Shown: in pieces, positions 19,491 to 32,422 of the stretch
How the letters are laid out: each line of letters begins with the position of its first letter
Numbering within the stretch: the stretch's first letter is position 1
Assembly: GCA_965205975.1 (NCBI GenBank)
Contig: OZ242195.1
Span: forward strand, 32,001-96,000
DNA from: Candidatus Latescibacterota bacterium
GTDB lineage: Bacteria > Latescibacterota > UBA2968
Direction: 5' to 3'
DNA length: 64,000 nucleotides
Program-made: the position numbers and the translations under genes
The notes under the pieces: generated by a model
Database searches by the model: none
Told to the model about the DNA's origin: nothing
The model's input: the letters and a program-made list of their open reading frames with translations, nothing else

Positions 19491-19604
19491 GTATAAAACC
19501 CCCTTTCCGTTATGAACAGGATACAGAATCTGAGATGGGATGTCAAGTGTTCTATTTTCTTAGACACCTGAGCCTATCTATGTGTTCCACAATAGAAATT
19601 GCGC

Positions 19605-19633
19605 TTGAAAGCAAGGGGTGAGATGGCTATACT
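19605..19633 (+). promoter_or_regulatory. Sigma70 promoter of the TA operon
   Basis: TTGAAA-17 nt-TATACT. Confidence 0.65.
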
Positions 19634-19663
19634 TATGTGTGTTCTACGAGAAAGGAGAATGAC

Positions 19664-19939
19664 ATGGCAGAACAAATATCTACAACAGACGCACCTCTAT
19701 CGTGTCCGACGTTAGAAAAATTGTCGAAGGAAGAGCAAGAGATGTTATTCGATGCTTTTGAGAAGGCTATCGAACTGGCAGAAAAAGCAGGTTTCTCAGA
19801 AGCTGAAATTTTTCAGTTTCTTGAAGACGTGATCGATGTTCGTGCATCTGAACAGATCCTGGATAAGATGGAGAGAACCGGAGAGAAACCAATGACTCTG
19901 GAGGAGTTCAAAAAAGAATTGGACATGCAGAGTGAATAG
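19664..19939 (+). CDS. Putative antitoxin of a RelE/ParE toxin
   Basis: RBS AAGGAG; acidic; LEDVIDVRA...MTLEEFKKEL tail; overlaps the toxin start. Confidence 0.75.
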   Translation: MAEQISTTDAPLSCPTLEKLSKEEQEMLFDAFEKAIELAEKAGFSEAEIFQFLEDVIDVRASEQILDKMERTGEKPMTLEEFKKELDMQSE

Positions 19940-20201
19940 GGCTTATACGGTTGAAATTACATCTGTTGCTCGACGTCAGATAAGGCACTTATCCAGATCC
20001 ATGCAGGATAGAATTATTTCTCGACTGTACGCTTTAGCTGATAATCCACGCCCACCGGGTGTTATCAAGATGAAAGGTCGCCGCAGGCGTGATGAATATC
20101 GAATACGAGTGGGGAATTATCGCGTGATCTACCAGATTAACGATGATATGCTGGTTGTGTTGATTGTTCGTATAGCTGATAGACGGGAAGCATATAGATA
20201 A
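19932..20201 (+). CDS. RelE/ParE family toxin
   Basis: YTVEIT...LADNPRPPG..K...YRIRVGNYRVIYQI...IADRREAYR. Confidence 0.9.
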   Translation: MNRAYTVEITSVARRQIRHLSRSMQDRIISRLYALADNPRPPGVIKMKGRRRRDEYRIRVGNYRVIYQINDDMLVVLIVRIADRREAYR

Positions 20202-20251: not shown

Positions 20252-23200
20252 CTACAAGGGTGGCGATAAAGAGAGCGGAGAGGGGTTTTTCCTTTCTTCA
20301 GAAAAATACATCGCCTTGAATCGTTCCATTTGTTTGATTTTATCGATCAGAACTCGTTCGTGTTGCGAACTCGCCACATTCCGGACAAGGAACTTGGCAT
20401 CCACATCAGTCAATCTTAGTACCAGGTAATTCGCAATAGCTGAAAAAACAGAGACGTTGAAGTCCTTTGCTTCCTGTGAGGCAAGTACCAGCGAAATACC
20501 GTATTTCCGACATTCCTTGGCCATGGTAGGGATAAGTTTGAGGCCCGCGGCGCGGTGTGCCTCGTCGAAGATCAACGCATGAGTGACGCGATCATGGATG
20601 CCTCGTCGAAACATGTCCTTATAAAGGCTATAAAACACCAATGAGGCAAAAGCCCGTTGAAGGTTATCATTTTGTGTTGTGTGAATACGAATGACTATCG
20701 GTTGTTCACTTTCCCATAAACTGCTACGCGACTCACGGAGATTAAAGAATCCGTAGTCTTCAAGTTCTTCCAGACGAGCAAGTAATGTGGCCAATCCACG
20801 GTCCAGTTTCTCGTCACGCAGAATCTCAACGAAACGGCTAAACGACGGCTCTTGTAAATCTGTGGTGCCTGCGTTGGCATTTCCCCACCCTGCTTCGGTA
20901 AAGCTGTCTTTGATTGCCCTGCGGATACGCTCGGTCTGAATGTCGCCGAGTTCTGGATAAATCGCCGCGAAGATGTCCCGTATTGCGCCTGCCACGTCGA
21001 GATGCGCCATACGGGATTCCCGATTTACTACCTCTAGCGGGTTGAAACCCAGACCATCAAAATCGATGAACCGAACTGAATCAACCGACTGCTCGAGTTT
21101 CTCGTCAATGTCCTGATGGTAGGAGAAGATGATCGGGCAGATTTCTGCTGCGACCATCTGCTGACACAGATTCAGAAGGCAGGTGGTCTTGCCCATCCCC
21201 GGCAATCCCGCGATTAGAAGATGGGGGTTGCCCTTTACTGTTAGCGGCCAGTCAACTTTTGCATTTGTAATGGAATCTGTTCCCAAATAGATTGAGGGCA
21301 CAGTGTCAACGGAGGCTTCTACACGTTCAACCGATATTTGTTGAGAGTCTATACTGTCCTTGGATCCATCATCGGTCCGTTCTGACGATGAGCGGGTTTC
21401 AGGCTCAGAGTTATTTGTGGGTAAACTAAAGCCCGAATCAGGTAAAAGACTGGGGCCGAATAGGAATGTCTCAGTGTTCCAATTGTCGGGAGAAATTTTC
21501 AACGGACTCGCCCCAGCATACTCGGGACAAAATATCCATCCTCGATCTCCATTTTCGTCTATATTCAGTTTGTAGTCACTACCTTTTCCAATCATGCGAT
21601 TGATCTCTGACACGAGTTCGGTATGACGTACCGAGGGCAAATGGTGTCTGCGTGCCTTATCCACATAAAAGCGCAGTACACGGGCGAGCTTGGCGCGACG
21701 AATTGCTCGAAATGCAGAGCACCCTTCATGCGAATACCAATCATTCCAGCGTTTGCGCATTCCCTCAATCTGATCTCGAACACGACTTAAGACATCCGGG
21801 GATCTCGCAGCACGTAGATCTCGACGGTATTTGACCTCAATGAATCGGAATATCAGTCCTTTTCTCGGTGCCGTAGTCACATAAATCAGATCAGGTCTCA
21901 CATTCTTCTCTCCAACATCCTTGTCCTTCAACGGTGGCAACAGGTCTCGAACATCATCTACGGGAACAATGAAACCGCGTTTTAGCGACAACCAGCATGG
22001 ATCTTCTCCGCTCACCTGTCTGCAATTTGCCTGCGAAAAAGCGAGTGCGATCAACTCCGAAATCGGTGGTTTGTCTCCGGTTAGGCGAATAGCGAGCCGT
22101 CCGCTGAGAGCCTTTAAATGCTCAAGTAGAAACTCCGCATTTCGACGGCTACGACTCAGCCCCATCTGGTCTAAGGCGGCATCGAGCAGCACGCGCACCT
22201 CATCTAGGTTACTGGTAGAAGTGATGAGTTGTAAGCAGCCCAGGTCTTCCCGTTCTGGAACGCAATTGATCACGTAAGCATCGTAGATTTCCCCATTATC
22301 CCGAGGAGAATCAAAATATTCGATGCCAGCGTTCCGATCCAGCGTAATGACCCAGTCACAAAGCCGATGGAGAGCCTTGAGGTTGTCCGCCTTTTCCGGT
22401 GAGATTGCTGTGTGTAGCACCGGTAGCTTTCCATTTTCAGCACCGACATGGTGTGCTACAGTGCTTTGTATGGCGTGCTGCAAATGCGTCAGACGTTCGG
22501 TATGCCTGCGCTCTGATGGGTGCTTCTCGCCATCTGTTGCCGGTGGAATCGTATTATGCCACATCGGCGTGGGCTTTGTGGTGAAGTCGCGCTCGTAGAA
22601 GGAAAGTAGGCCGAATGCGTGGAACGGACTATCGCCCGATGGTTTCTGTTCATCCGATGCAACTTGCGACTCGAACGTATCAAATGCGATGGCAACATGG
22701 GCGGCGGTCTCAGGCTCAGATTGATCTTTCCGTGCCCAGCGTAATCTGGGCATGTTCACCCCGCCGGGCAGACTCAAGGATTCGAGCATCCATCGATCAT
22801 CAGTTGACACTACACCAGCACCACTGCGCCGCCGTTCCCGCGCCTCGACGATGAATCTGCCTGCGATTCCTTGTTGCTCCTCGGACGGATACATCTCCAG
22901 CGAAAAGACAGGTGCTTCTCGCGATTCTTCCTCTGAATCAACAGATAGCCCATCCTCGTCATCGGCTCTGTGCAGATGGTCGTGTACATAGCCCAACGAC
23001 CTGGCAATAGTCAGACCATCTCCCGCTCGAAGCGCGTGAACGTGAAGTAGCCGAGATGTGTTGTGGCAATCCAGGTACTTGACTATCTCGTCACCAACTA
23101 CCCTTGCGCTTTGTCCCCCTACCGTTGGAGCGTTGTCCATTGATTCGCCTTCCCCCAGCGCACGCGCAAGAATTGCTACAGCAGCTTTGGGTTCCTTGTC

Positions 23201-25198
23201 AGTGTCGGAGACCATACCGACCGCATGAAAGCCGAGGGTGTCCGCAAAAACAAACGATCCGCCAGCCAGATTTGGGAGAAAGGCAGGAAACATGGCACCG
23301 TCCAAGCACTGAAGTTCATCCCTTATGGCTTTCGCCTTTTGATCCTGCTCAAAGGCCGCGTGAAGAACGAGGTTGTCATAAGCGGCATGCCACGCAACGC
23401 GCAACGGGTGCATTGGCAGGACGATCAAGCCGATCGTTCGCCCTGCAAGGGACTGCACCTCCACGGTATTACATAATACCATGGATGGGTCACCGCTCTC
23501 CAGTAAGTGAGTCCAGGCGCGTATGTACTCTTTAACCGAATCAAATGCCTTTGTCTTATCGTCATAGATGTAGCCTACCACACTGTTGCTCTTACAGACG
23601 CAGTCGGCCAATTTCCGGCTCGCTGCGATGGCTCGATACCATGCTTTCCCATTGCCTTCACAGCGAATGAAATCCACTTCTCCCGCTTGGGCTCCAGATG
23701 CACGTACTTTAACGCGCCAACGCCCTGGTATTCCGGCCCTACCCATCCACTGCTTTTCTACTTCTCGGATTAGCGGTGGGCAAGACACGCGAAAACTCAA
23801 CCGTTTTGACGCCGTCGTGCGTAACAGCACCGAGTTGCCTTTTTCATCAAAGCTAAAACCCGCTGGATTATCGACGATAGCCGAGACGCTCTCCCTATCA
23901 TTGAGTTCGACCATCCCCTCACTAAAGGTGCGAACCTTTTTGCCAGCACCCCCCGCAGTCTTGTCAGGTGGCTCGCCAAAGCGAATGAAGAATTCTTCGC
24001 TCTCTTGAGATTCAACCACATCGTTACCAACAACGGAAACCACTACCTTGGCAGAGACGAGAGAGTCTTCATTTGACAATGGGAAGTCGTCGTTGCTGAA
24101 TCGGCACTTCTCCTCCCTTTTTCCCGAATGGACCACTTCGCGTACGGCAAGTTCTTCATCCATGTCTGTCAGGATGGCAATATGGTACTCAACGGCATTT
24201 TTTTCTAAGTTGCCAGGCCTTGTCTTCCATCTGATTTCCAAATTCGAATAGGCAGCCGAAGTCTCGGGTTCTGGATCCAAAATTAGTTCTGGCGGTTCGT
24301 CATCGGGTCGTTCTCGCAATCCCGACCACTTGGCAATCGTCCCATTTCGGTTGCGCCAAGACACAAGTTCAATTGATTCGATGTCAGTTGCGTTCTCTAT
24401 CTGCAATGCGCCCACCCACAAGTGTTTCTTGTCTACCAGTTTCTCTAATGCTGGCAGAAGAGATTGGGTTTCCGCGGTGTGCAAAAAGCCTTCAAGATCG
24501 CGGCGTTGTTCATCTGTCAATTTGGCCAGCCGTAGCGATTCAATGCGCGCTGGGATAGTGAGACCAAAGGCTGCCGTTCCCAACAAGTGATCCACAAATC
24601 GGCGTGCAAAGTCCAACTCTTCCTTCGGGGCCGGTTCATCGAATTTTTTTACTGGCCACAGGCCGAGTAGGTGAAAATACGCACCGGGATGCCGTTTGTG
24701 CGCAGCAATCCGGCACAAGAAATCGAATACTGTCCAGGGTGAAATACTGTACTGAGTACCGAATCCTGCAGCTTTCTTTATCGCGTCTTCGGCATACTGG
24801 CGATCCGCGCGGGACAATTGGCGTGTCACCTCTGCGGCAGCCAGTCGTTGAGCTTCCCTAAACAGTCCTGCCTCATCAACTTCCCGCGACGCGCTGTAAA
24901 TGCCATCCATGCCAGCACCGGCACGATCTGTGTCCACCAGTAGCAAGGTTGCTTCGCCTTTCGTCTCGCGTACCTCGACAGCATGGTCCGCTGTAATAGT
25001 TCGTGTTTCGGCATTATCCGAATCCGCGACCCGTCGGATCTGCCAATCCTGTAGGCTGAAGTTCGCGTCCTTAGCAAGCCTTTCCACCACATCCGGCGTC
25101 AGACAACGGACGAAGGCCATAGCACCGGATTCAGCTTGACCCAGTATGTTTGAAAACGCATTCCCGAGTATTTGCCCATGTAATTTGGTCCACTCCAT
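20252..25198 (-). CDS. DndH/Mad8-like protein: large N-terminal region, PD-(D/E)XK nuclease motif, C-terminal HerA/FtsK-like ATPase
   Basis: RPDLIYV...FIEVKYR; GLPGMGKT (21185-21208), LIFDEAHR, ECRKYGISLVLASQ. Confidence 0.8.
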   Translation of the reverse strand: MEWTKLHGQILGNAFSNILGQAESGAMAFVRCLTPDVVERLAKDANFSLQDWQIRRVADSDNAETRTITADHAVEVRETKGEATLLLVDTDRAGAGMDGIYSASREVDEAGLFREAQRLAAAEVTRQLSRADRQYAEDAIKKAAGFGTQYSISPWTVFDFLCRIAAHKRHPGAYFHLLGLWPVKKFDEPAPKEELDFARRFVDHLLGTAAFGLTIPARIESLRLAKLTDEQRRDLEGFLHTAETQSLLPALEKLVDKKHLWVGALQIENATDIESIELVSWRNRNGTIAKWSGLRERPDDEPPELILDPEPETSAAYSNLEIRWKTRPGNLEKNAVEYHIAILTDMDEELAVREVVHSGKREEKCRFSNDDFPLSNEDSLVSAKVVVSVVGNDVVESQESEEFFIRFGEPPDKTAGGAGKKVRTFSEGMVELNDRESVSAIVDNPAGFSFDEKGNSVLLRTTASKRLSFRVSCPPLIREVEKQWMGRAGIPGRWRVKVRASGAQAGEVDFIRCEGNGKAWYRAIAASRKLADCVCKSNSVVGYIYDDKTKAFDSVKEYIRAWTHLLESGDPSMVLCNTVEVQSLAGRTIGLIVLPMHPLRVAWHAAYDNLVLHAAFEQDQKAKAIRDELQCLDGAMFPAFLPNLAGGSFVFADTLGFHAVGMVSDTDKEPKAAVAILARALGEGESMDNAPTVGGQSARVVGDEIVKYLDCHNTSRLLHVHALRAGDGLTIARSLGYVHDHLHRADDEDGLSVDSEEESREAPVFSLEMYPSEEQQGIAGRFIVEARERRRSGAGVVSTDDRWMLESLSLPGGVNMPRLRWARKDQSEPETAAHVAIAFDTFESQVASDEQKPSGDSPFHAFGLLSFYERDFTTKPTPMWHNTIPPATDGEKHPSERRHTERLTHLQHAIQSTVAHHVGAENGKLPVLHTAISPEKADNLKALHRLCDWVITLDRNAGIEYFDSPRDNGEIYDAYVINCVPEREDLGCLQLITSTSNLDEVRVLLDAALDQMGLSRSRRNAEFLLEHLKALSGRLAIRLTGDKPPISELIALAFSQANCRQVSGEDPCWLSLKRGFIVPVDDVRDLLPPLKDKDVGEKNVRPDLIYVTTAPRKGLIFRFIEVKYRRDLRAARSPDVLSRVRDQIEGMRKRWNDWYSHEGCSAFRAIRRAKLARVLRFYVDKARRHHLPSVRHTELVSEINRMIGKGSDYKLNIDENGDRGWIFCPEYAGASPLKISPDNWNTETFLFGPSLLPDSGFSLPTNNSEPETRSSSERTDDGSKDSIDSQQISVERVEASVDTVPSIYLGTDSITNAKVDWPLTVKGNPHLLIAGLPGMGKTTCLLNLCQQMVAAEICPIIFSYHQDIDEKLEQSVDSVRFIDFDGLGFNPLEVVNRESRMAHLDVAGAIRDIFAAIYPELGDIQTERIRRAIKDSFTEAGWGNANAGTTDLQEPSFSRFVEILRDEKLDRGLATLLARLEELEDYGFFNLRESRSSLWESEQPIVIRIHTTQNDNLQRAFASLVFYSLYKDMFRRGIHDRVTHALIFDEAHRAAGLKLIPTMAKECRKYGISLVLASQEAKDFNVSVFSAIANYLVLRLTDVDAKFLVRNVASSQHERVLIDKIKQMERFKAMYFSEERKNPSPLSLSPPL

Positions 25199-25199
25199 A

Positions 25200-27008
25200 T
25201 CAATTCTCCACTTCAGTCTCAAAGCGAGGCTTCAGCCGCTTCATTGCTTCTGCATCATTGACGCCCACTAAAAGTCCCAGATCACGCAGACGTCGCTCCA
25301 AAATCGCGCGATTCCTTTGCAACAATTCGTTGGAAATAGTCATCCCTGGTGGGGCAGTATCCACATGGAATCCATAGTGTTCGCGCAAAATTTCCATAAA
25401 CTCTTTGAACGAGAGGGTGCGAGGCCCCGATTTATTACCACTTCGTAACAAGTGACGATGGACAAGATAGTCCAGGACCGAATCGGTGAATACAAGAGAA
25501 CGCACATCGCGTTTGCGGCGCGTTGTACTTCCACTAAGACCACGCGTCGTCGCCCTTTTCGCCGCCAGCCCATTCGGACGCCCGGTGTGCAAGATTGAGT
25601 CAATCATTCCCATAAACTTGGTACGAGAGCTTGATCCTATGAGAACCATTAAACCATCGGCAAATCGCCAGACTGGATTCGGCTGATTATCTGCATTGCC
25701 AAGAATCTCCGCAGCATCGGCATAGTCGTTCGCTACTTCTGCAGCCAACTTGTTAGCATCATCTTCAATTCTGAACGAAATTCGTTGCGCTTCCAAGTGG
25801 CGATTGTGCAGCAAGTCCCCTAACAGATTTAGCCACTCGGTAGCATAAGGTCGGGTAGCAATACCCTGAGTTTTGATTTTTTGATTGTCCTGCGCATGAT
25901 AATCCAGCAGTCGCAGTGCCATTAGAATAGCGGGAAGGCGTTCCAAGCGCCGCATATGGTCGTCCATTGACTGCTCAGCTATATCCCGAATGCTGCGCTC
26001 TATCCCATTAGAGCAATCAATGAATAATGGAGCGGGTAACTGCTTCTTTTTTTCTGGAATGATACCCGTATCCGACCACCGTAATAATAACTCTATTGTA
26101 CTGGTAAGAATGGTCATCAGACCAATGGCAATACAGGACTCCAGCATTTCCACTAAGGCGTATCGCGGCACCAAGGCGGAGTATGAGCGCACGAAACGGC
26201 GAATGTCCTCGGAGAAGTTCTGCGCCGCTTGCTCGGCAATGGGGCGTTGATTGGAGATTGGGCCCGCTTCCCTACCACGTATCTTATCCGGTGCCCTTTC
26301 AAGTTGCTGAGCGAGTCGAACCATCAATAGTTGGTCCAATCCTACTAAATTGTTTTCCTCCTCAAACCGCTCCGATGCCAAGTCTCCTGAAAATTCTCCA
26401 TGGCGGATAACGCCTTGGCTAAAAGCATCCAACAAAACATTATCTTCGTAGTTTTTTCCTACGGGGAACCATGTTAGCTTCTTATTTTCGCTCAGCTCAA
26501 CGGACTCGCCCTTCTTTTGATCAGCCAGCAGGGCCACGATCATCTCGGGAACGTAGCGGAGGTTCACTACTTTTTCTGGTAAATCAATCCAACTCGCCAT
26601 ATAATGGGCTGGTGCAACGCGCTGGATCTGCTGGTCCCGTCCCAAACCGTGCTTGACATTTTCAAGGCAGAAACAGAGTAATAAGTCGCCAAGGATGGCT
26701 TTTTCGGGGTCGCTATTAAAACCGTCTAACTCTTCTATGTTGGAAAGCCTCTCTGCGATGCGCTCAATATTCACCGACCGTCTTATTTGGCTGGGCGATC
26801 CATTTTTGTCTCCAAAGGTCTTTAGAAAATTTCCAATACCTCTGCGTTGACCGAAACGGAACATGTAGAAAACAGCGGGAAGAATAGAAGATAATGCGAA
26901 ATCCTGTACCGAAACTGGCAGTACTTTATCGTAGTTACCAGACCAGATTTCTCGGGTCATTTTGCGGCCTAGAATATCATCAACGAGTGAGCGAGCAGTA
27001 TCGGCCAT
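25200..27008 (-). CDS. DndG/Mad7-like helical protein
   Basis: 602 aa, tightly packed between F-like and H-like genes; C-terminal LERRLRDLGLLVGVNDAEA. Confidence 0.65.
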   Translation of the reverse strand: MADTARSLVDDILGRKMTREIWSGNYDKVLPVSVQDFALSSILPAVFYMFRFGQRRGIGNFLKTFGDKNGSPSQIRRSVNIERIAERLSNIEELDGFNSDPEKAILGDLLLCFCLENVKHGLGRDQQIQRVAPAHYMASWIDLPEKVVNLRYVPEMIVALLADQKKGESVELSENKKLTWFPVGKNYEDNVLLDAFSQGVIRHGEFSGDLASERFEEENNLVGLDQLLMVRLAQQLERAPDKIRGREAGPISNQRPIAEQAAQNFSEDIRRFVRSYSALVPRYALVEMLESCIAIGLMTILTSTIELLLRWSDTGIIPEKKKQLPAPLFIDCSNGIERSIRDIAEQSMDDHMRRLERLPAILMALRLLDYHAQDNQKIKTQGIATRPYATEWLNLLGDLLHNRHLEAQRISFRIEDDANKLAAEVANDYADAAEILGNADNQPNPVWRFADGLMVLIGSSSRTKFMGMIDSILHTGRPNGLAAKRATTRGLSGSTTRRKRDVRSLVFTDSVLDYLVHRHLLRSGNKSGPRTLSFKEFMEILREHYGFHVDTAPPGMTISNELLQRNRAILERRLRDLGLLVGVNDAEAMKRLKPRFETEVEN

Positions 27009-27018
27009 TTTTCGTCTC

Positions 27019-30000
27019 CTACATCAGTTGTTGAATAATCATCCGTTGTTGAACGTCTGTACCATCACTTTCGACGATCTCAGCAGAAATTTCATAAATT
27101 GCATCATCGTGCATTGGATTATAGGCCAATATCTTGCGATCATCCTCGCGAACCAGTCGCTGCACAAAGATAGATAATTGTGCAAATGTATCATCCGTCG
27201 AGACATCGCCCAACTGGTAACCGTCGTTCAGTTCCAGCAACAGGTGAAATAGATCGGCACCAAGACGCAGACGCTCTTTCCGTCCATCCCGATAGCGGTA
27301 GATCAAAAAGGCTTGGCGATGCAGGTGATCAAGTCCCGCGGCTTCAGCGGGCAGGTTGGCTTCGAGCCGAAAAGCGGTGATAGGCTTTTCTACCCAGAAT
27401 GCCGTTTCAGTAGGGGTGCGGGGAGTAATACGCAGTGGGACGATCCCGGAACGCTTAAATGCTTGAGGTGGCAGGTTTTCCAAGCGTGCAATCCCTCCGC
27501 ATAGTTTTTGGCAAAGATCGTCTAGATTGTCCTTGTCAATTGGAAGGCTCTGGAACTTTGGATAATGCCGAGCTTGGGCTAAGCTCAGGGCATTAGGATC
27601 ACCGGTAAGTTCGACGACCTCGTCTTGGATCCATTCAAAATAAGCTCGCCGTCGCGCTGATTCCAATTCCATCTCTGCATAATGGGTAACACCGATATTA
27701 GTATCGGTAGATGGTGTACGCAGCAGTTTCCGATCAATCTGTGGATGGGCTTCGAGAGCCGGGTCAAAACGTATCAGTTCTCGTAAAACTTCGCCCTGTC
27801 GTCCCGGTGACTCTGTCGAAAAGGCGCGATCCCAATAGGGCAATAGAGTGTCCTTACCCTTGTGATAGTCGTGGCAGAAGTGAACCCCAAATAGGATATA
27901 TACCAGTGCGGCCCTTAGTTCACGGATAGTGATGTGGGTTTCGCCGCGGAAATGAACAGCTTGCAACATCTCGAACAGTCGTTGCCGGGCGCGGGTACGG
28001 CGTTCCTTTAAATCCAAACTAGGTAATCCGTCAGGCCCAAATAACCGCATAGCGCGGCGGACCTCACACCGATCCTGAGCCGAACACGTTTCGCAGGGTG
28101 CCCAAATTTCGGATGCCTTCTCGCCACCGTAAAGGATATTTAGCAACTCATTAAGAAAGCCGGTTTCAATGTCTGTTGCATCAGCGGTTATACCTCCCAC
28201 GAGAGAACGCTGGTTGAGATTGATGAATCGAATGTGCGATTCGGAGACAGACCTCTCGCTGTTGAGCAGGCTGTCAAGCACCTGCGTTAAGGGCGTTTCT
28301 CCACCATGATGGTATTCTACATCTTCCATCCATTCCAGGAGGCGGCCGTCATTGATCGCGAGAAGATGTACAATATCCTCATCGGGTGGGCCTTCTTGAA
28401 ATGGTTCCAGAAATTCATCCAGTAACTCATCCGCTGATCGTCCTTGCCAAGATGCCGAACCATCAAGATTCATGCGCACCGTCAGGCCGTCATCCATTTG
28501 CTTTTCGAGAATGCGCTCTGAGGAAGTGTGGTTGCCAAACCCGAGACGACTGGCCAGGTGCTGAAGCAACGCGGTCTTGCCGTCCCCAGCATTACCGCAC
28601 AGGACGACGAGGCGAACCTGCCGTTTCTGTATCTGATCGAACAGCGATTGCTCTAAGTTTGTTTCAACATAGGTTTGCGAGGCAAAATCTGTGTCGAGGC
28701 CGCGTGTTTCGCTATTACCCCAGCGGGAACCGGGATAGGATTGCAGTAGAGATTGGAGCCAAGGTATTTCGTTCTCACTGCGAGCGCGAGGTTCCGATAG
28801 TGGCTTTGAGATGTCGCTGCCTCCCTTACCAACGGATTCTTCTCCGTCTTCGGCGTCAATGGAGCCGGGTGAGAGCAAAACGGCCTTCGCTTCGGTAGCT
28901 GATGCAAATCGTTGCTCGGGGTCGGGATTTGTAGCTTGATCTATAAATGCGGCGACGGTTGGGTACTCGTCGAGCTCGACGTTATCCCAATTCAATCCGC
29001 GGTCCTTGGCTTGGTTGCCATTGTACATAAACGGCTTCTTTTCAAAAAGCACATGGAAGAAACTCGCTGCCAATGCAAAGAAATCATCCGAGGGCGTAGC
29101 TGGGCGGTCTTCAAGGTGCGTATGCGCGCTATACATGATGGTCCCGGCAGCGGCTGGCGTCCCTGCCTTGATAACGCAGTCGTAGTCGGTCAAAACGATC
29201 TCGCTATCGGCAACAATCATGTTGCGCGGGCTGACATCGCCATGTACCAAACCGTTACGGTGCAGGACATCCAACGCATCGCAAATCGTCCGTAGCCAAC
29301 GCAAGGATAGGGCCTCTCCCGACTCTTCATGGAAGTCTTCGGCAAGAATGGGGATTAGTCCGGAAAGTTCGCTTAAGGGCTCGCCTTCTATCCAGGCCAT
29401 CAATGCAACGATTTTGTTGTCGCGCCACTCATCCGCTGTCTCGAAGATCGTTGAAAGTGCTGTCGAATGATGGAGGTGTGAGTGCGCCAAATTGTATGAC
29501 TGAAGGACTCGCTTGCCCGTTTTCTCATTCCGGACAACTTTGGCAACGTAGGCACCGAGGTCTCCGCCAGTCGAGTCATCAATCTTTACCACCTTGAATG
29601 TGGTGCCGACTCCACCTGAACCCAGACGCGAAACGATGCGGTAATCTCGACCGCGAAAGTTCACAATTTGATCTTCAGTCCAGAATCGGGCTGGTGGCGC
29701 GGCGACTGTAGGCAGTTCACCCAATAGGATAGATATCGAGTCGCGGAGATCCTGCAAGGTGCTACGCTCCGCTGGATCATCTACCATCCCCTTAACCAGC
29801 ATCTCTTTGGCATTCTGACTTTTATCATCACTTCGTTCTGAGAATAGCACGGATAGACTGGCACACAATGAGTACACATCGGAGCGACGATCCGCTGCAC
29901 CGAGTCCTTGGGCACGCACCTCGGGAGCAATCGCATTGTCTCCTTCGTCTTCTGCACTGCTGGAAATCGCCACAGTAATATCGTCGGGAATTCGAGCGTG

Positions 30001-31026
30001 TTGGAAACCGGTCAGGATCGGTGTGTTATCATGTTTGACGAGAATCGTGTCAGGCGTGAGGTTTCGATGAAGCATGGGTTCTTCACCTTCGTCCGTTTCA
30101 TGCAGTTCCATCAATGCGTCAACTGTATGCCGAGCGAAGGCTATGCGTGTCTTCGTATCCCATGTGTCATCTTCTGTGCGTTGCTTAATACTGGGAGCCG
30201 CCGGATCTGCAACTGTGAAGAACCACATCTCGCCCGCATACCCCGGTGCTTCTTGGAACGAGTCGTCAATACGCGGTGCCCAGGAGTGGAGTTGCAGTCG
30301 GTGCAGTGCGTCAAATTCCCGCCGCGCCCTCGACTCTGGATTTCGTTGGTCGGTTGCCGACACATCGTAGAGATGCAGGAGCACGCGATTACGCCGTTTG
30401 GAATGCGTGCCTTTGTAGATTCGGTGAAATCGTTCATCTGAAGGCGTCTGAAGTACCAGATTGACATAGCCCGCCATGGGTCTCAGATCGCCATCGGCCA
30501 ACACACTGGTCTTTGGATACAGAGCCTTTCCCAGTATCTTGACTTGCGGCGGCGATAATGATGTAGGCTCATCCAGTGCCACAGCACCTTGCCAGGTTTT
30601 TAATGTGTGGAACGAAACGCCGCGGACTTTCTGGCCCTCAAGAGGTTTGACCTTTAAGGCGTCCTGTGTAACCAGGAACACCCCATCCACCCGGTCGAGA
30701 TTGGCGACCTTTCGACGTAATGTGGTACCGACCTTGCGCGCTTTAGCCATTACGCGTTCGGCCTCATGTTCTACGCGTTCAGCATTTTGCTTCACCCAAG
30801 TTGAGGTCCAGTGTTTGACCTCAATGACCCGGATTCCAGGCGGGCCAATAGCTACAATGTCGATTTCATCTGATTGACGTTGATGGGTAGTGGAAAACGC
30901 GAGGTTTGTCAACAGCAGCCATTCTCCATCGCCTAATTCAGAAATCAGACCCGACTTAAGTCGCTCAATGGCCTTCTGTTCGCTATCATTGGCGACAGGC
31001 CCACAGTTAATAAGAGTTACTTTCAT
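27019..31026 (-). CDS. Mad6-like protein: NERD + pseudokinase + Ser/Thr kinase + DndF-like P-loop ATPase
   Basis: NERD (SEQ...EIDIVAIG...VIEVKHW); HRNLTP (degenerate); GSGGVG, VAK, HGDVSPRN; CGNAGDGKT (28573-28596), AINDGRL, CxxC..C; start MKVTL at 31026. Confidence 0.82.
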   Translation of the reverse strand: MKVTLINCGPVANDSEQKAIERLKSGLISELGDGEWLLLTNLAFSTTHQRQSDEIDIVAIGPPGIRVIEVKHWTSTWVKQNAERVEHEAERVMAKARKVGTTLRRKVANLDRVDGVFLVTQDALKVKPLEGQKVRGVSFHTLKTWQGAVALDEPTSLSPPQVKILGKALYPKTSVLADGDLRPMAGYVNLVLQTPSDERFHRIYKGTHSKRRNRVLLHLYDVSATDQRNPESRARREFDALHRLQLHSWAPRIDDSFQEAPGYAGEMWFFTVADPAAPSIKQRTEDDTWDTKTRIAFARHTVDALMELHETDEGEEPMLHRNLTPDTILVKHDNTPILTGFQHARIPDDITVAISSSAEDEGDNAIAPEVRAQGLGAADRRSDVYSLCASLSVLFSERSDDKSQNAKEMLVKGMVDDPAERSTLQDLRDSISILLGELPTVAAPPARFWTEDQIVNFRGRDYRIVSRLGSGGVGTTFKVVKIDDSTGGDLGAYVAKVVRNEKTGKRVLQSYNLAHSHLHHSTALSTIFETADEWRDNKIVALMAWIEGEPLSELSGLIPILAEDFHEESGEALSLRWLRTICDALDVLHRNGLVHGDVSPRNMIVADSEIVLTDYDCVIKAGTPAAAGTIMYSAHTHLEDRPATPSDDFFALAASFFHVLFEKKPFMYNGNQAKDRGLNWDNVELDEYPTVAAFIDQATNPDPEQRFASATEAKAVLLSPGSIDAEDGEESVGKGGSDISKPLSEPRARSENEIPWLQSLLQSYPGSRWGNSETRGLDTDFASQTYVETNLEQSLFDQIQKRQVRLVVLCGNAGDGKTALLQHLASRLGFGNHTSSERILEKQMDDGLTVRMNLDGSASWQGRSADELLDEFLEPFQEGPPDEDIVHLLAINDGRLLEWMEDVEYHHGGETPLTQVLDSLLNSERSVSESHIRFINLNQRSLVGGITADATDIETGFLNELLNILYGGEKASEIWAPCETCSAQDRCEVRRAMRLFGPDGLPSLDLKERRTRARQRLFEMLQAVHFRGETHITIRELRAALVYILFGVHFCHDYHKGKDTLLPYWDRAFSTESPGRQGEVLRELIRFDPALEAHPQIDRKLLRTPSTDTNIGVTHYAEMELESARRRAYFEWIQDEVVELTGDPNALSLAQARHYPKFQSLPIDKDNLDDLCQKLCGGIARLENLPPQAFKRSGIVPLRITPRTPTETAFWVEKPITAFRLEANLPAEAAGLDHLHRQAFLIYRYRDGRKERLRLGADLFHLLLELNDGYQLGDVSTDDTFAQLSIFVQRLVREDDRKILAYNPMHDDAIYEISAEIVESDGTDVQQRMIIQQLM

Positions 31027-31270
31027 AAATACCTTCTTCCCGTTCGTCATCACGAGCATTTAGAATACTCGAAGGCCGAACGCGGGTTCCCGTCGCTTCC
31101 TTGCGCTCGCGGACTCTGTGCAGCCACTCTTCAACCGAGGGCCGCGATGCGATTCGTTCCAACTCTTCGCGGAGAAATGCCTGCATGGACTGGCGTTGGC
31201 GGGCGGCACGGACAGCAAGCGCGTCGTGTACATCTTCCGGGACGTTCTCTATGGTGATTTGTACTGGCAT
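31007..31270 (-). CDS. FitA/VapB-like ribbon-helix-helix antitoxin, orphan
   Basis: QITIENVPEDVHDALAVRAA...SMQAFLREEL; no PIN gene follows. Confidence 0.8.
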   Translation of the reverse strand: MPVQITIENVPEDVHDALAVRAARQRQSMQAFLREELERIASRPSVEEWLHRVRERKEATGTRVRPSSILNARDDEREEGIYESNSY

Positions 31271-31297: not shown

Positions 31298-32422
31298 TTA
31301 TTTCGTCTTGTCCATCAACCTGGCAAATTCGTCGAAGAGATAATCGGCATCGTGCGGACCGGCAGAGGCTTCGGGGTGGTATTGGACGGAGAAGGCGGGC
31401 AGTTCGCGGTGGCGCAGGCCCTCGAGGGTGTTGTCGTTGAGATTGATGTGGGTGAGTGCTACGACTTCTCGGTCGAGGGTGTTGAGATCGACGCAGAAAC
31501 CGTGGTTTTGTGCGGTGATTTCGACTTTGCCCGTGCTGGCGTGTTGCACGGGCTGATTGGCACCCCGGTGACCAAATTTGAGTTTGTACGTTTTTCCACC
31601 CAGTGCCAGGCCGAGAAGCTGATGGCCCAGGCATATTCCAAAGGTAGGGCGTTCGCGGATCAATTTGCGGATGTTTTTGACCGCATAAGTCACGGGTTCT
31701 GGATCGCCCGGGCCGTTGGATAAAAATATGCCGTCGGGATCGATTTCGAGGAGTTGCTCTGCGGGTGTGTCGGCGGGGAAAACAGTTACATCGCAGCCGC
31801 GGTCAACGAGGTAGCGCAAGATGTTGTGTTTGATACCAAAGTCGTAAGCCGCCACGCGGTATTTGGCTTTTTGCTTAAGATGTCTGGTCTGGCCGGTTTT
31901 GAGATCGCAAAGGCCCTCGGCCCAGTGGTAGGGTTCTGAGCAGGTGACGTTTTGCACGAGGTCGCGGCCGATCAGGCCGGGGAAGGCGCGCGCTTTTTGA
32001 ACGAGGCTGTCGGTGTCGAGATCGGTGGTTGACAGTACGCCTTTCATTGCGCCTTGACGGCGGATGTGTCGTACGAGGGCGCGGGTGTCAATGCCTTCAA
32101 TGCCAGGTATGTTGTGTTCTTTTAGAAAGTCGCCGAGGGCAATGGTCGATCGCCAGTTGCTGGGGTATGGACAGTATTCTTTGACCACAAAGCCTGAGAC
32201 CTGGGGTTTGTGCGATTCAAAGTCGGATGGATTGATGCCGTAGTTGCCAATGAGTGGATAGGTCATGGTTACGATCTGGCTGTTATAAGACGGGTCTGTG
32301 AGGATTTCCTGATATCCCGTCATGCTGGTGTTGAAGACGACTTCCCCTTCGCATTCGACTTCTGCGCCAAAGGATTTGCCTTTGAAAATTGTGCCGTCTT
32401 CCAATGCGAGAATCGCTTCCAT
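31298..32422 (-). CDS. carA: Carbamoyl-phosphate synthase small subunit
   Basis: [34 protein letters not shown]. Confidence 0.98.

Follow-up and report, generated by a model that had tools for sequence, protein, structure and literature searches.

A kinase-fused DndFGH-like trio from a Latescibacterota genome that may act without a DNA mark of its own

Can a DndFGH-type complex defend a cell when no gene for a self-marking DNA modification travels with it? The DndFGH and SspFGH systems tested so far attack self DNA that lacks the mark, whereas genome comparisons find most DndFGH operons without a marking partner. The question is posed here by three genes, F, G and H, on the reverse strand of a 64,000-nucleotide stretch (the window; positions 32,001 to 96,000 of contig OZ242195.1) from a Candidatus Latescibacterota bacterium (assembly GCA_965205975.1; hereafter G000), which is part of one contig of 5,559,252 bases. 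F (27019–31026) encodes a DndF/Mad6-like subunit of 1335 residues with a NERD nuclease, a pseudokinase, a Ser/Thr/Tyr kinase and a derived P-loop core bearing a Cys/His cluster, G (25200–27008) a DndG/Mad7-like, putatively DNA-binding subunit of 602 residues with a MAD7 profile match and a predicted DndG (7EXX) fold, and H (20252–25198) a DndH/Mad8-like subunit of 1648 residues that combines a MAD8-like body, a PD-(D/E)XK nuclease and a DptH-type HerA ATPase. Recomputed coordinates bear out the initial annotation of three intact, tightly packed and co-directional open reading frames (ORFs), with gaps of 10 bp between F and G and 1 bp between G and H and no internal stops; each gene is single-copy in G000. 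We lean, modestly, towards the reading that the trio is a DndFGH/MADS-core cassette that would defend against phage or plasmid DNA without a mark of its own, remaining off until an infection cue.

Distribution and neighbourhoods of the trio

The G protein has 1314 relatives among 8000 candidates scored, and 212 clusters are recovered at E ≤ 1e-30 in a 50% library. We surveyed 63 related loci from species genomes of many phyla; one unpublished genome (L021/G169) contributes a single row to this set and to the sets of 50, 62 and 65 genomes. F adjoins G at 62 of these loci and H follows at 58; of the five exceptions to the F-G-H order, four are truncated at or close to the end of a contig and the fifth is a lone fragment. 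All three genes are full length at 37 of the 63 loci, at 37–92% identity and across many phyla.

At least 3 kb of upstream sequence was available at 45 loci and at least 3 kb downstream at 44, and the most frequent flanking family occurs no more than 7 times across loci. A PADLOC scan (E ≤ 1e-12) of 319 of the 520 flanking ORFs (at least 110 residues, within 3.5 kb) gave no match to DndC/D/E or SspB/C/D, and the mad2 methylase and mad5 specificity subunit are absent upstream of the trio in G000 and not conserved at the 63 loci. Methylases of type I, C5 and N4/N6 kinds lie on either side at seven loci (L015, L025, L035, L041, L058, L064 and L070), and another defence-model match occurs at 24 of the 63, a count made without a background control. 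At two loci of the gammaproteobacterial class (G218 and G383), a listing of ORFs alone reveals no obvious marking gene upstream; a third (G441) is cut upstream and a fourth (G339) is an ssp-type locus. An apparent SspH match upstream of the L023 locus proved to be a housekeeping FtsK next to lolA, and that upstream of L033 is a homolog of the same FtsK. On the evidence of these loci, the trio is a widespread mobile cassette without a conserved marking partner, and the recurrence of the three-gene locus supports, across the family, the stand-alone reading offered in the initial annotation.

Protein architecture and kinship

Motifs were read from alignments of the query with full-length proteins from the 63 loci (49 F and 48 H sequences), and the roles of the F and H motif residues are those we take them to have from general knowledge together with PMC10853773. 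The NERD nuclease domain of F (30772–30987; residues 14–85) matches PF08378 above cut-off (E 5e-10), with D56, E69 and K71 present in 49/49 sequences. It is followed by the pseudokinase (29707–30459; about residues 190–440, limits estimated from motifs), in which Asn replaces the catalytic Asp in 42/49 sequences, the catalytic loop reads HRN, and the Lys and Gly loop are absent. By contrast with this inactive copy, the second kinase (28903–29643; residues 462–708; PF00069, E 5e-22, above cut-off) is predicted to be active, since K496, D597, N602 and D614 are retained in 49/49.

The remainder of F is the DndF core (27022–28689), where the P-loop CGNAGDGKT is invariant, such that Walker A, N853, D855 and N892 are each found in 49/49 sequences, as are four Cys of the C978/C981/C987/C1051/H1055 cluster. 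Curated NCBIfam models score below their cut-offs (MAD6 175 of 460 bits, DptF 22.6 of 50), PADLOC places SspF on residues 786–1048 (E 5e-19), the F family profile matches one DptF (E 7e-21), and a sequence profile of the core finds no PDB match. With a derived P-loop, an intact Walker A and an Asn-type Walker B/ND motif, and with the Zn insert being optional, the core is by its motifs a DndF in the broad sense, and the NERD-pseudokinase-kinase-P-loop order with preserved catalytic motifs described initially is upheld. A 287-residue F remnant was also observed (L116; G085:C1:880056), in which an internal deletion joins the start of NERD to the start of the kinase; there is no G match in that genome.

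The G protein scores 136 bits against the NCBIfam MAD7 model (cut-off 410), and its sequence profile has no PDB match. Its structure model (predicted local distance difference test, pLDDT, 87; predicted TM score, pTM, 0.90) has DndG 7EXX as its sole Foldseek match at E ≤ 0.001 (probability 1.00, E 9e-4), with a TM score of 0.52 on the target and a root-mean-square deviation of 9.3, the runner-up having E 0.3. As modelled, G thus has the winged-helix fold of DndG.

The motifs of H are similarly preserved. Within the PD-(D/E)XK motif (21821–21901), D1103 and E1121 are each found in 45/48 sequences and K1123 in 43/48, and within the HerA/FtsK-class ATPase (20288–21286; residues 1305–1637) the Walker A GxxGMGKT, the DEAH motif, R1564 and Q1575 are present in 48/48, which agrees with the nuclease and HerA-like ATPase first assigned to this protein. 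A restriction endonuclease followed by a HerA/FtsK ATPase with an Arg finger and a Gln sensor makes H a DndH, as far as its motifs tell. By sequence, H is closest among PDB entries to the DptH ATPase 7ES4 (E 7e-7), and PADLOC finds DndH on the ATPase; NCBIfam returns HerA-type ATPases only, below cut-off, with no MAD8, DptG or DptH model among the matches listed at E ≤ 0.01. The H family profile matches MAD8-type proteins over residues ~590–1190 (E 1e-27 to 1e-49), with the ATPase barely matched, and a DptH over residues 1256–1647 (E 3e-31). H thus seems to combine the body of a MAD8-type protein with a motor of the DptH type, a mixture that agrees with the idea of HerA capture in PMC10853773. 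A model of residues 1–1190 (pLDDT 81) displays alpha/beta, helical, beta-sandwich and Rossmann-like segments in the order given there for DndH, and Foldseek recovers beta-sandwich likenesses only. An inactive adenine methylase with TRDs, which belongs to the front of DndH, was sought in H by profile and by the motif [NDS]PP[FYW], neither of which gave a match; the H profile finds none of the methylases of G000, and a profile of the front of H finds nothing in the PDB.

The likeness to Mad6-8 and DndFGH noted at the outset is borne out. All three proteins are clearly homologous to the core of MADS, in which the NERD-kinase-kinase-P-loop layout and the GNAGDGKT motif recur; the preprint on MADS (Maestri et al., bioRxiv 10.1101/2023.03.30.534895) reports that mad6-8 are required and that the mark is N6-methyladenine (m6A). 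Nevertheless, the trio falls below the curated MAD6 and MAD7 cut-offs, forms a separate clade, lacks mad1-5 and carries an H ATPase of the DptH rather than the MAD8 type. In a quick maximum-likelihood tree of F cores with 36 rows (21 chosen loci, the query, four other trio members, six MADS-type, three Ssp and one DptF), the trio is a clade of its own of 26 rows (SH-aLRT 96), apart from a MADS-type clade (92), with no bootstrap and with long-branch warnings, and its proteins are 19–26% identical to MADS-type cores. Among the kinase-fused MADS-type relatives, an N6 methylase lies upstream in four of five annotated plasmids, with a full eight-gene layout on a Piscinibacter plasmid and a methylase with HsdS in Hymenobacter, Chondrinema and Bacteroides; the fifth has an ATPase gene instead. 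On the Bacillus thuringiensis plasmid pKK1 (L133:6992-22523), the MADS-type core follows a 255-residue gene and a 1308-residue ATPase with a weak BrxC/D match and without an annotated methylase, and this locus represents another partner set for a MADS-type core.

Compared with DndBCDE-DndFGH of Salmonella Cerro 87 (PMC11662687), G resembles DndG 7EXX in fold, the H ATPase resembles DptH 7ES4 and the F core resembles DptF weakly, whereas F has ~750 extra residues (nuclease and kinases) and the trio shows neither linked dndBCDE nor genome-level co-occurrence with it. Likewise, there are weak matches of the F core to SspF and of the final portion of G to SspG of SspABCD-SspFGH (PMC8092258), but no sspBCD lies at the trio locus and G000 has no strong SspD. 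PglW of type 2 BREX has the same NERD-pseudokinase-kinase front (PADLOC E 3e-11; PMC12839542); its C-terminal half differs from that of F, and neither pglX nor pglZ is found at the locus. A dptFGH operon with a 798-residue DptF lies on a Priestia megaterium plasmid (L137:11473-20739), beside a Dam-type methylase and an AlwI-type nuclease, and dndBCDE is not seen in the 25 kb shown around it. Closest are the stand-alone DndFGH of Rakesh, Aravind and Krishnan 2024 (PMC10853773), which share the F architecture, the F-G-H order, the DndG fold, nuclease and HerA in H, and the lack of linked modification genes; the available text of that computational work reveals no substantial difference. It describes NERD with an inactive and an active kinase fused to DndF, which PMC12839542 restates, and it counts all eight dnd genes in just 316 taxa versus 1798 with DndFGH parts, proposing stand-alone action. 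Both the fusion and the stand-alone idea are therefore already published, and the initial annotation overstated their novelty; the literature searched, which did not cover subscription papers, listed no experiments on a kinase-fused trio without a marker. By its sequences, the trio fits the broad definition of DndFGH and is, by defining features, neither MADS nor a phosphorothioate-dependent system.

Marking genes elsewhere in the genome and phylum

The initial claim that no modification genes are linked to the trio holds at the locus but not for the genome, since a full dnd modification cluster is encoded elsewhere in G000. At G000:C1:5,337,988-5,349,467 (also covered as L012:12989-19804 and L013:1-4467), dndB-dndB-dndC-dndD-dndE follows pbeA, pbeC and a pair of small ORFs (79 and 165 residues) without a family match; if the contig is circular, ~260–270 kb separate it from the trio. 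As judged from its genes, the cluster is a phosphorothioation system with its own nuclease module, pbeA/pbeC. That the trio is the cognate restriction arm of this cluster would fit the completeness of the gene set, the DndG fold of G and the kinship of the H motor with DptH, yet we consider it highly improbable: the closest relative, G084, which is assembled as one contig and has a 90–92% identical trio at this very site, lacks dndC and any strong match to SspD, DndC occurs in just 2 of the 12 trio genomes of the phylum, and the cluster already has an adjacent nuclease module. A cognate modification operon elsewhere, envisaged in the initial annotation, was thus found as an operon but does not appear cognate, because G084 lacks dndC and strong SspD and trio genomes show no excess of such enzymes.

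The latter was assessed by scoring a phosphorothioate synthase as DndC over cut-off or SspD at E ≤ 1e-40. Across 168 genomes of the phylum, the trio is present in 12, DndC in 13, SspD in 44 and either enzyme in 53, and either enzyme occurs in 4/12 trio genomes compared with 53/168 phylum genomes. In the two most trio-rich genera, the proportions are 4/10 with and 29/42 without the trio; Fisher tests (p 0.23, 1.0 and 0.14) serve purely as description, because related genomes are not independent samples. Over all phyla, 62 trio genomes include 14 with DndC and 19 with strong SspD, and 12 of 29 chromosome-level assemblies have neither. Six of these twelve (G129, G171, G208, G210, G211 and G213) carry an intact trio and have no PP-loop match even at E ≤ 1e-8, and the draft genome of Sphingobium AN558 (G203), also with an intact trio, has no DndC, strong SspD or HsdS match. 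G000 itself has no SspD at E ≤ 1e-40, the SspB, SspC and SspD of G339 find nothing in it by tblastn, and its best MAD2 match reaches 81 of 720 bits, so that the genome-wide search proposed for mad2 and ssp genes returned neither at these thresholds.

Several observations weigh against a mark-free mode of action. dndBCDE is present in G000 itself, DndC or SspD occurs somewhere in 29/62 trio genomes, and HsdS is found in 53/65, including all six chromosome-level genomes without DndC and SspD; moreover, most surveyed genomes are metagenome-assembled genomes (MAGs), so that gene absence weighs little. A type I R-S-M operon lies directly upstream of the trio at L058, and on the Rhizobium anhuiense plasmid pRA_T24_3 (L090:22179-25174) two N4/N6 methylases immediately follow H on the same strand. 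Since the tested DndFGH (PMC11662687) and SspFGH (PMC8092258) harm self DNA that is unmarked, a version operating without a mark would require some brake; MAD6, moreover, functions together with a methylase although it possesses the same two kinase domains. The pRA_T24_3 plasmid is one of two Rhizobium plasmids that carry the trio at 38–43% identity; one of its two methylases carries a MerR-type helix-turn-helix (HTH), and both are absent at the R. phaseoli locus, which makes these loci a natural pair for testing marker dependence.

The trio might instead be a restriction arm that borrows a mark already present in the host, type I m6A or phosphorothioate, and that needs no linked marker while still distinguishing marked self from unmarked foreign DNA. 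The nearest tested relatives all read a mark, SspFGH accepts one shared with another system (PMC8092258), and the HsdS, DndC and SspD frequencies above, together with 14 N6-methylase matches in G000, speak in its favour. We nonetheless regard this as rather unlikely, as none of the marker classes is common to every genome with the trio (G196 is without HsdS, six are without DndC and SspD, and G203 is without all three), the eight type I-like methylases of G000 each have an HsdR match within ~16 kb, and a cassette crossing phyla at 55–70% identity would presumably meet differing motifs in each host.

G000 is rich in restriction-modification genes, with 18 HsdS-domain and 12 HsdR matches in addition to the N6 methylases, several of the systems being split or spread over 10–16 kb by inserted genes. 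An orphan HsdM-HsdS pair that could serve as a partner was sought and not found, all eight methylases having HsdR matches nearby, one of these matches being weak and broken. Weak SspD-like matches in G082 and G084 were also set aside as part of another operon (L091:8389-13208 in G082; L094:7666-12461 in G084), which encodes a PP-loop-like protein of 296 residues, an SF2 helicase, a GHKL/MORC-type ATPase and a PLD-like nuclease; similar weak matches number two in G084 and five in G197. From its gene content, this four-gene operon is possibly a modification-linked defence system, and its PP-loop, ATPase and PLD genes were not found in G000.

Site history and proposed mode of action

The neighbours named in the initial annotation are confirmed. 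Downstream, the trio is bordered by a RelB-like antitoxin and ParE/RelE toxin pair on the forward strand (19637–20201), and upstream a FitA/VapB-like ribbon-helix-helix (RHH) antitoxin on the reverse strand (31007–31270), orphaned by deletion of its vapC partner, overlaps the start of F, with carA further out on that side; neither the pair nor the antitoxin is conserved alongside the trio. In G141, a genome of another family, F is immediately preceded by a homolog of this RHH antitoxin (L045:5342). A scan for promoters and terminators stayed at chance level (9 found, 12.7 expected). An assembly break at ~31030, raised as a concern, is ruled out by separately assembled public contigs that span 24248–31077 and 29036–31077 with 0 differences to the window, although the runs behind them may be the window's own source sample, and by G084, which shows the same junction.

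Among 20 other genomes of the genus, the trio occupies the same site in one (G084) and lies elsewhere in one (G082). In six genomes, all that is left of F here is its initial 23 nt, ending at the same base; three of them (G073, G077 and G078) have the antitoxin, then an intact vapC, then the F remnant, and the other three share the loss of vapC with G000. These structures imply an ancestral order carA-vapB-vapC-F, in which the orphan antitoxin arose by loss of vapC and the trio was lost as a block. A recent deletion of mad1-5 is rejected, since the upstream gene lost is vapC. Comparison of the sites indicates that, within the genus, the three genes have been acquired and deleted together at a single site, and empty-site joints also occur in public contigs from runs holding the trio. 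More broadly, the site downstream of carA (window positions 31004–31048 and 19589–19912; L097–L111) is a hot spot in this genus, with turnover of vapBC, of the trio, of RelBE-like pairs and of insertion sequences.

The 23-nt remnants in six relatives and the split genes at several loci could also indicate a system whose main role is abortive or directed against plasmids, or else cargo with weak expression and mild toxicity that hosts tend to lose, in line with the suicide roles given to NERD and kinase, and the plasmid interception to HerA, in PMC10853773. However, invariant motifs over 38–90% identity argue for selection on function, and gene splits in MAGs may be assembly errors; we judge this explanation decidedly improbable.

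For a cassette that defends without its own mark, tested DndFGH suggests how the parts would work. DndFGH is a 2:2:1 complex with translocation-coupled nicking, in which the mark on self DNA represses ATP hydrolysis (PMC11662687). By analogy, F, G and H would form one complex, with G and the front of H binding DNA, the HerA motor translocating and the PD-(D/E)XK domain nicking. As no mark goes with the cassette, the complex would be off by default and licensed by an infection cue; since nothing marks self DNA so as to halt the motor there, the core of F, with its P-loop and lid, may, more tentatively, sense an invader-derived nucleotide or protein and so license cutting. The kinase and NERD could provide the switch, or a second line of defence in which the infected cell is killed. 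It is conceivable, if quite unlikely, that the built-in kinase replaces the DNA mark by phosphorylating its own complex, holding the nuclease and motor off until a phage cue is read by the P-loop core. The phage kinase JSS1_004 turns DndFGH off by phosphorylation (PMC12345140), which makes such a self-kinase brake conceivable.

The trio ties the MADS core to DndFGH, and its clade offers a clean case of an intact and widespread system for which no linked or co-occurring marker was found. The cultured carriers Rhizobium phaseoli R630, R. anhuiense T24 and Sphingobium AN558 make the stand-alone hypothesis testable. If the kinase brake were true, it would represent restriction without modification, controlled at the level of protein, in a family thought to need a mark.

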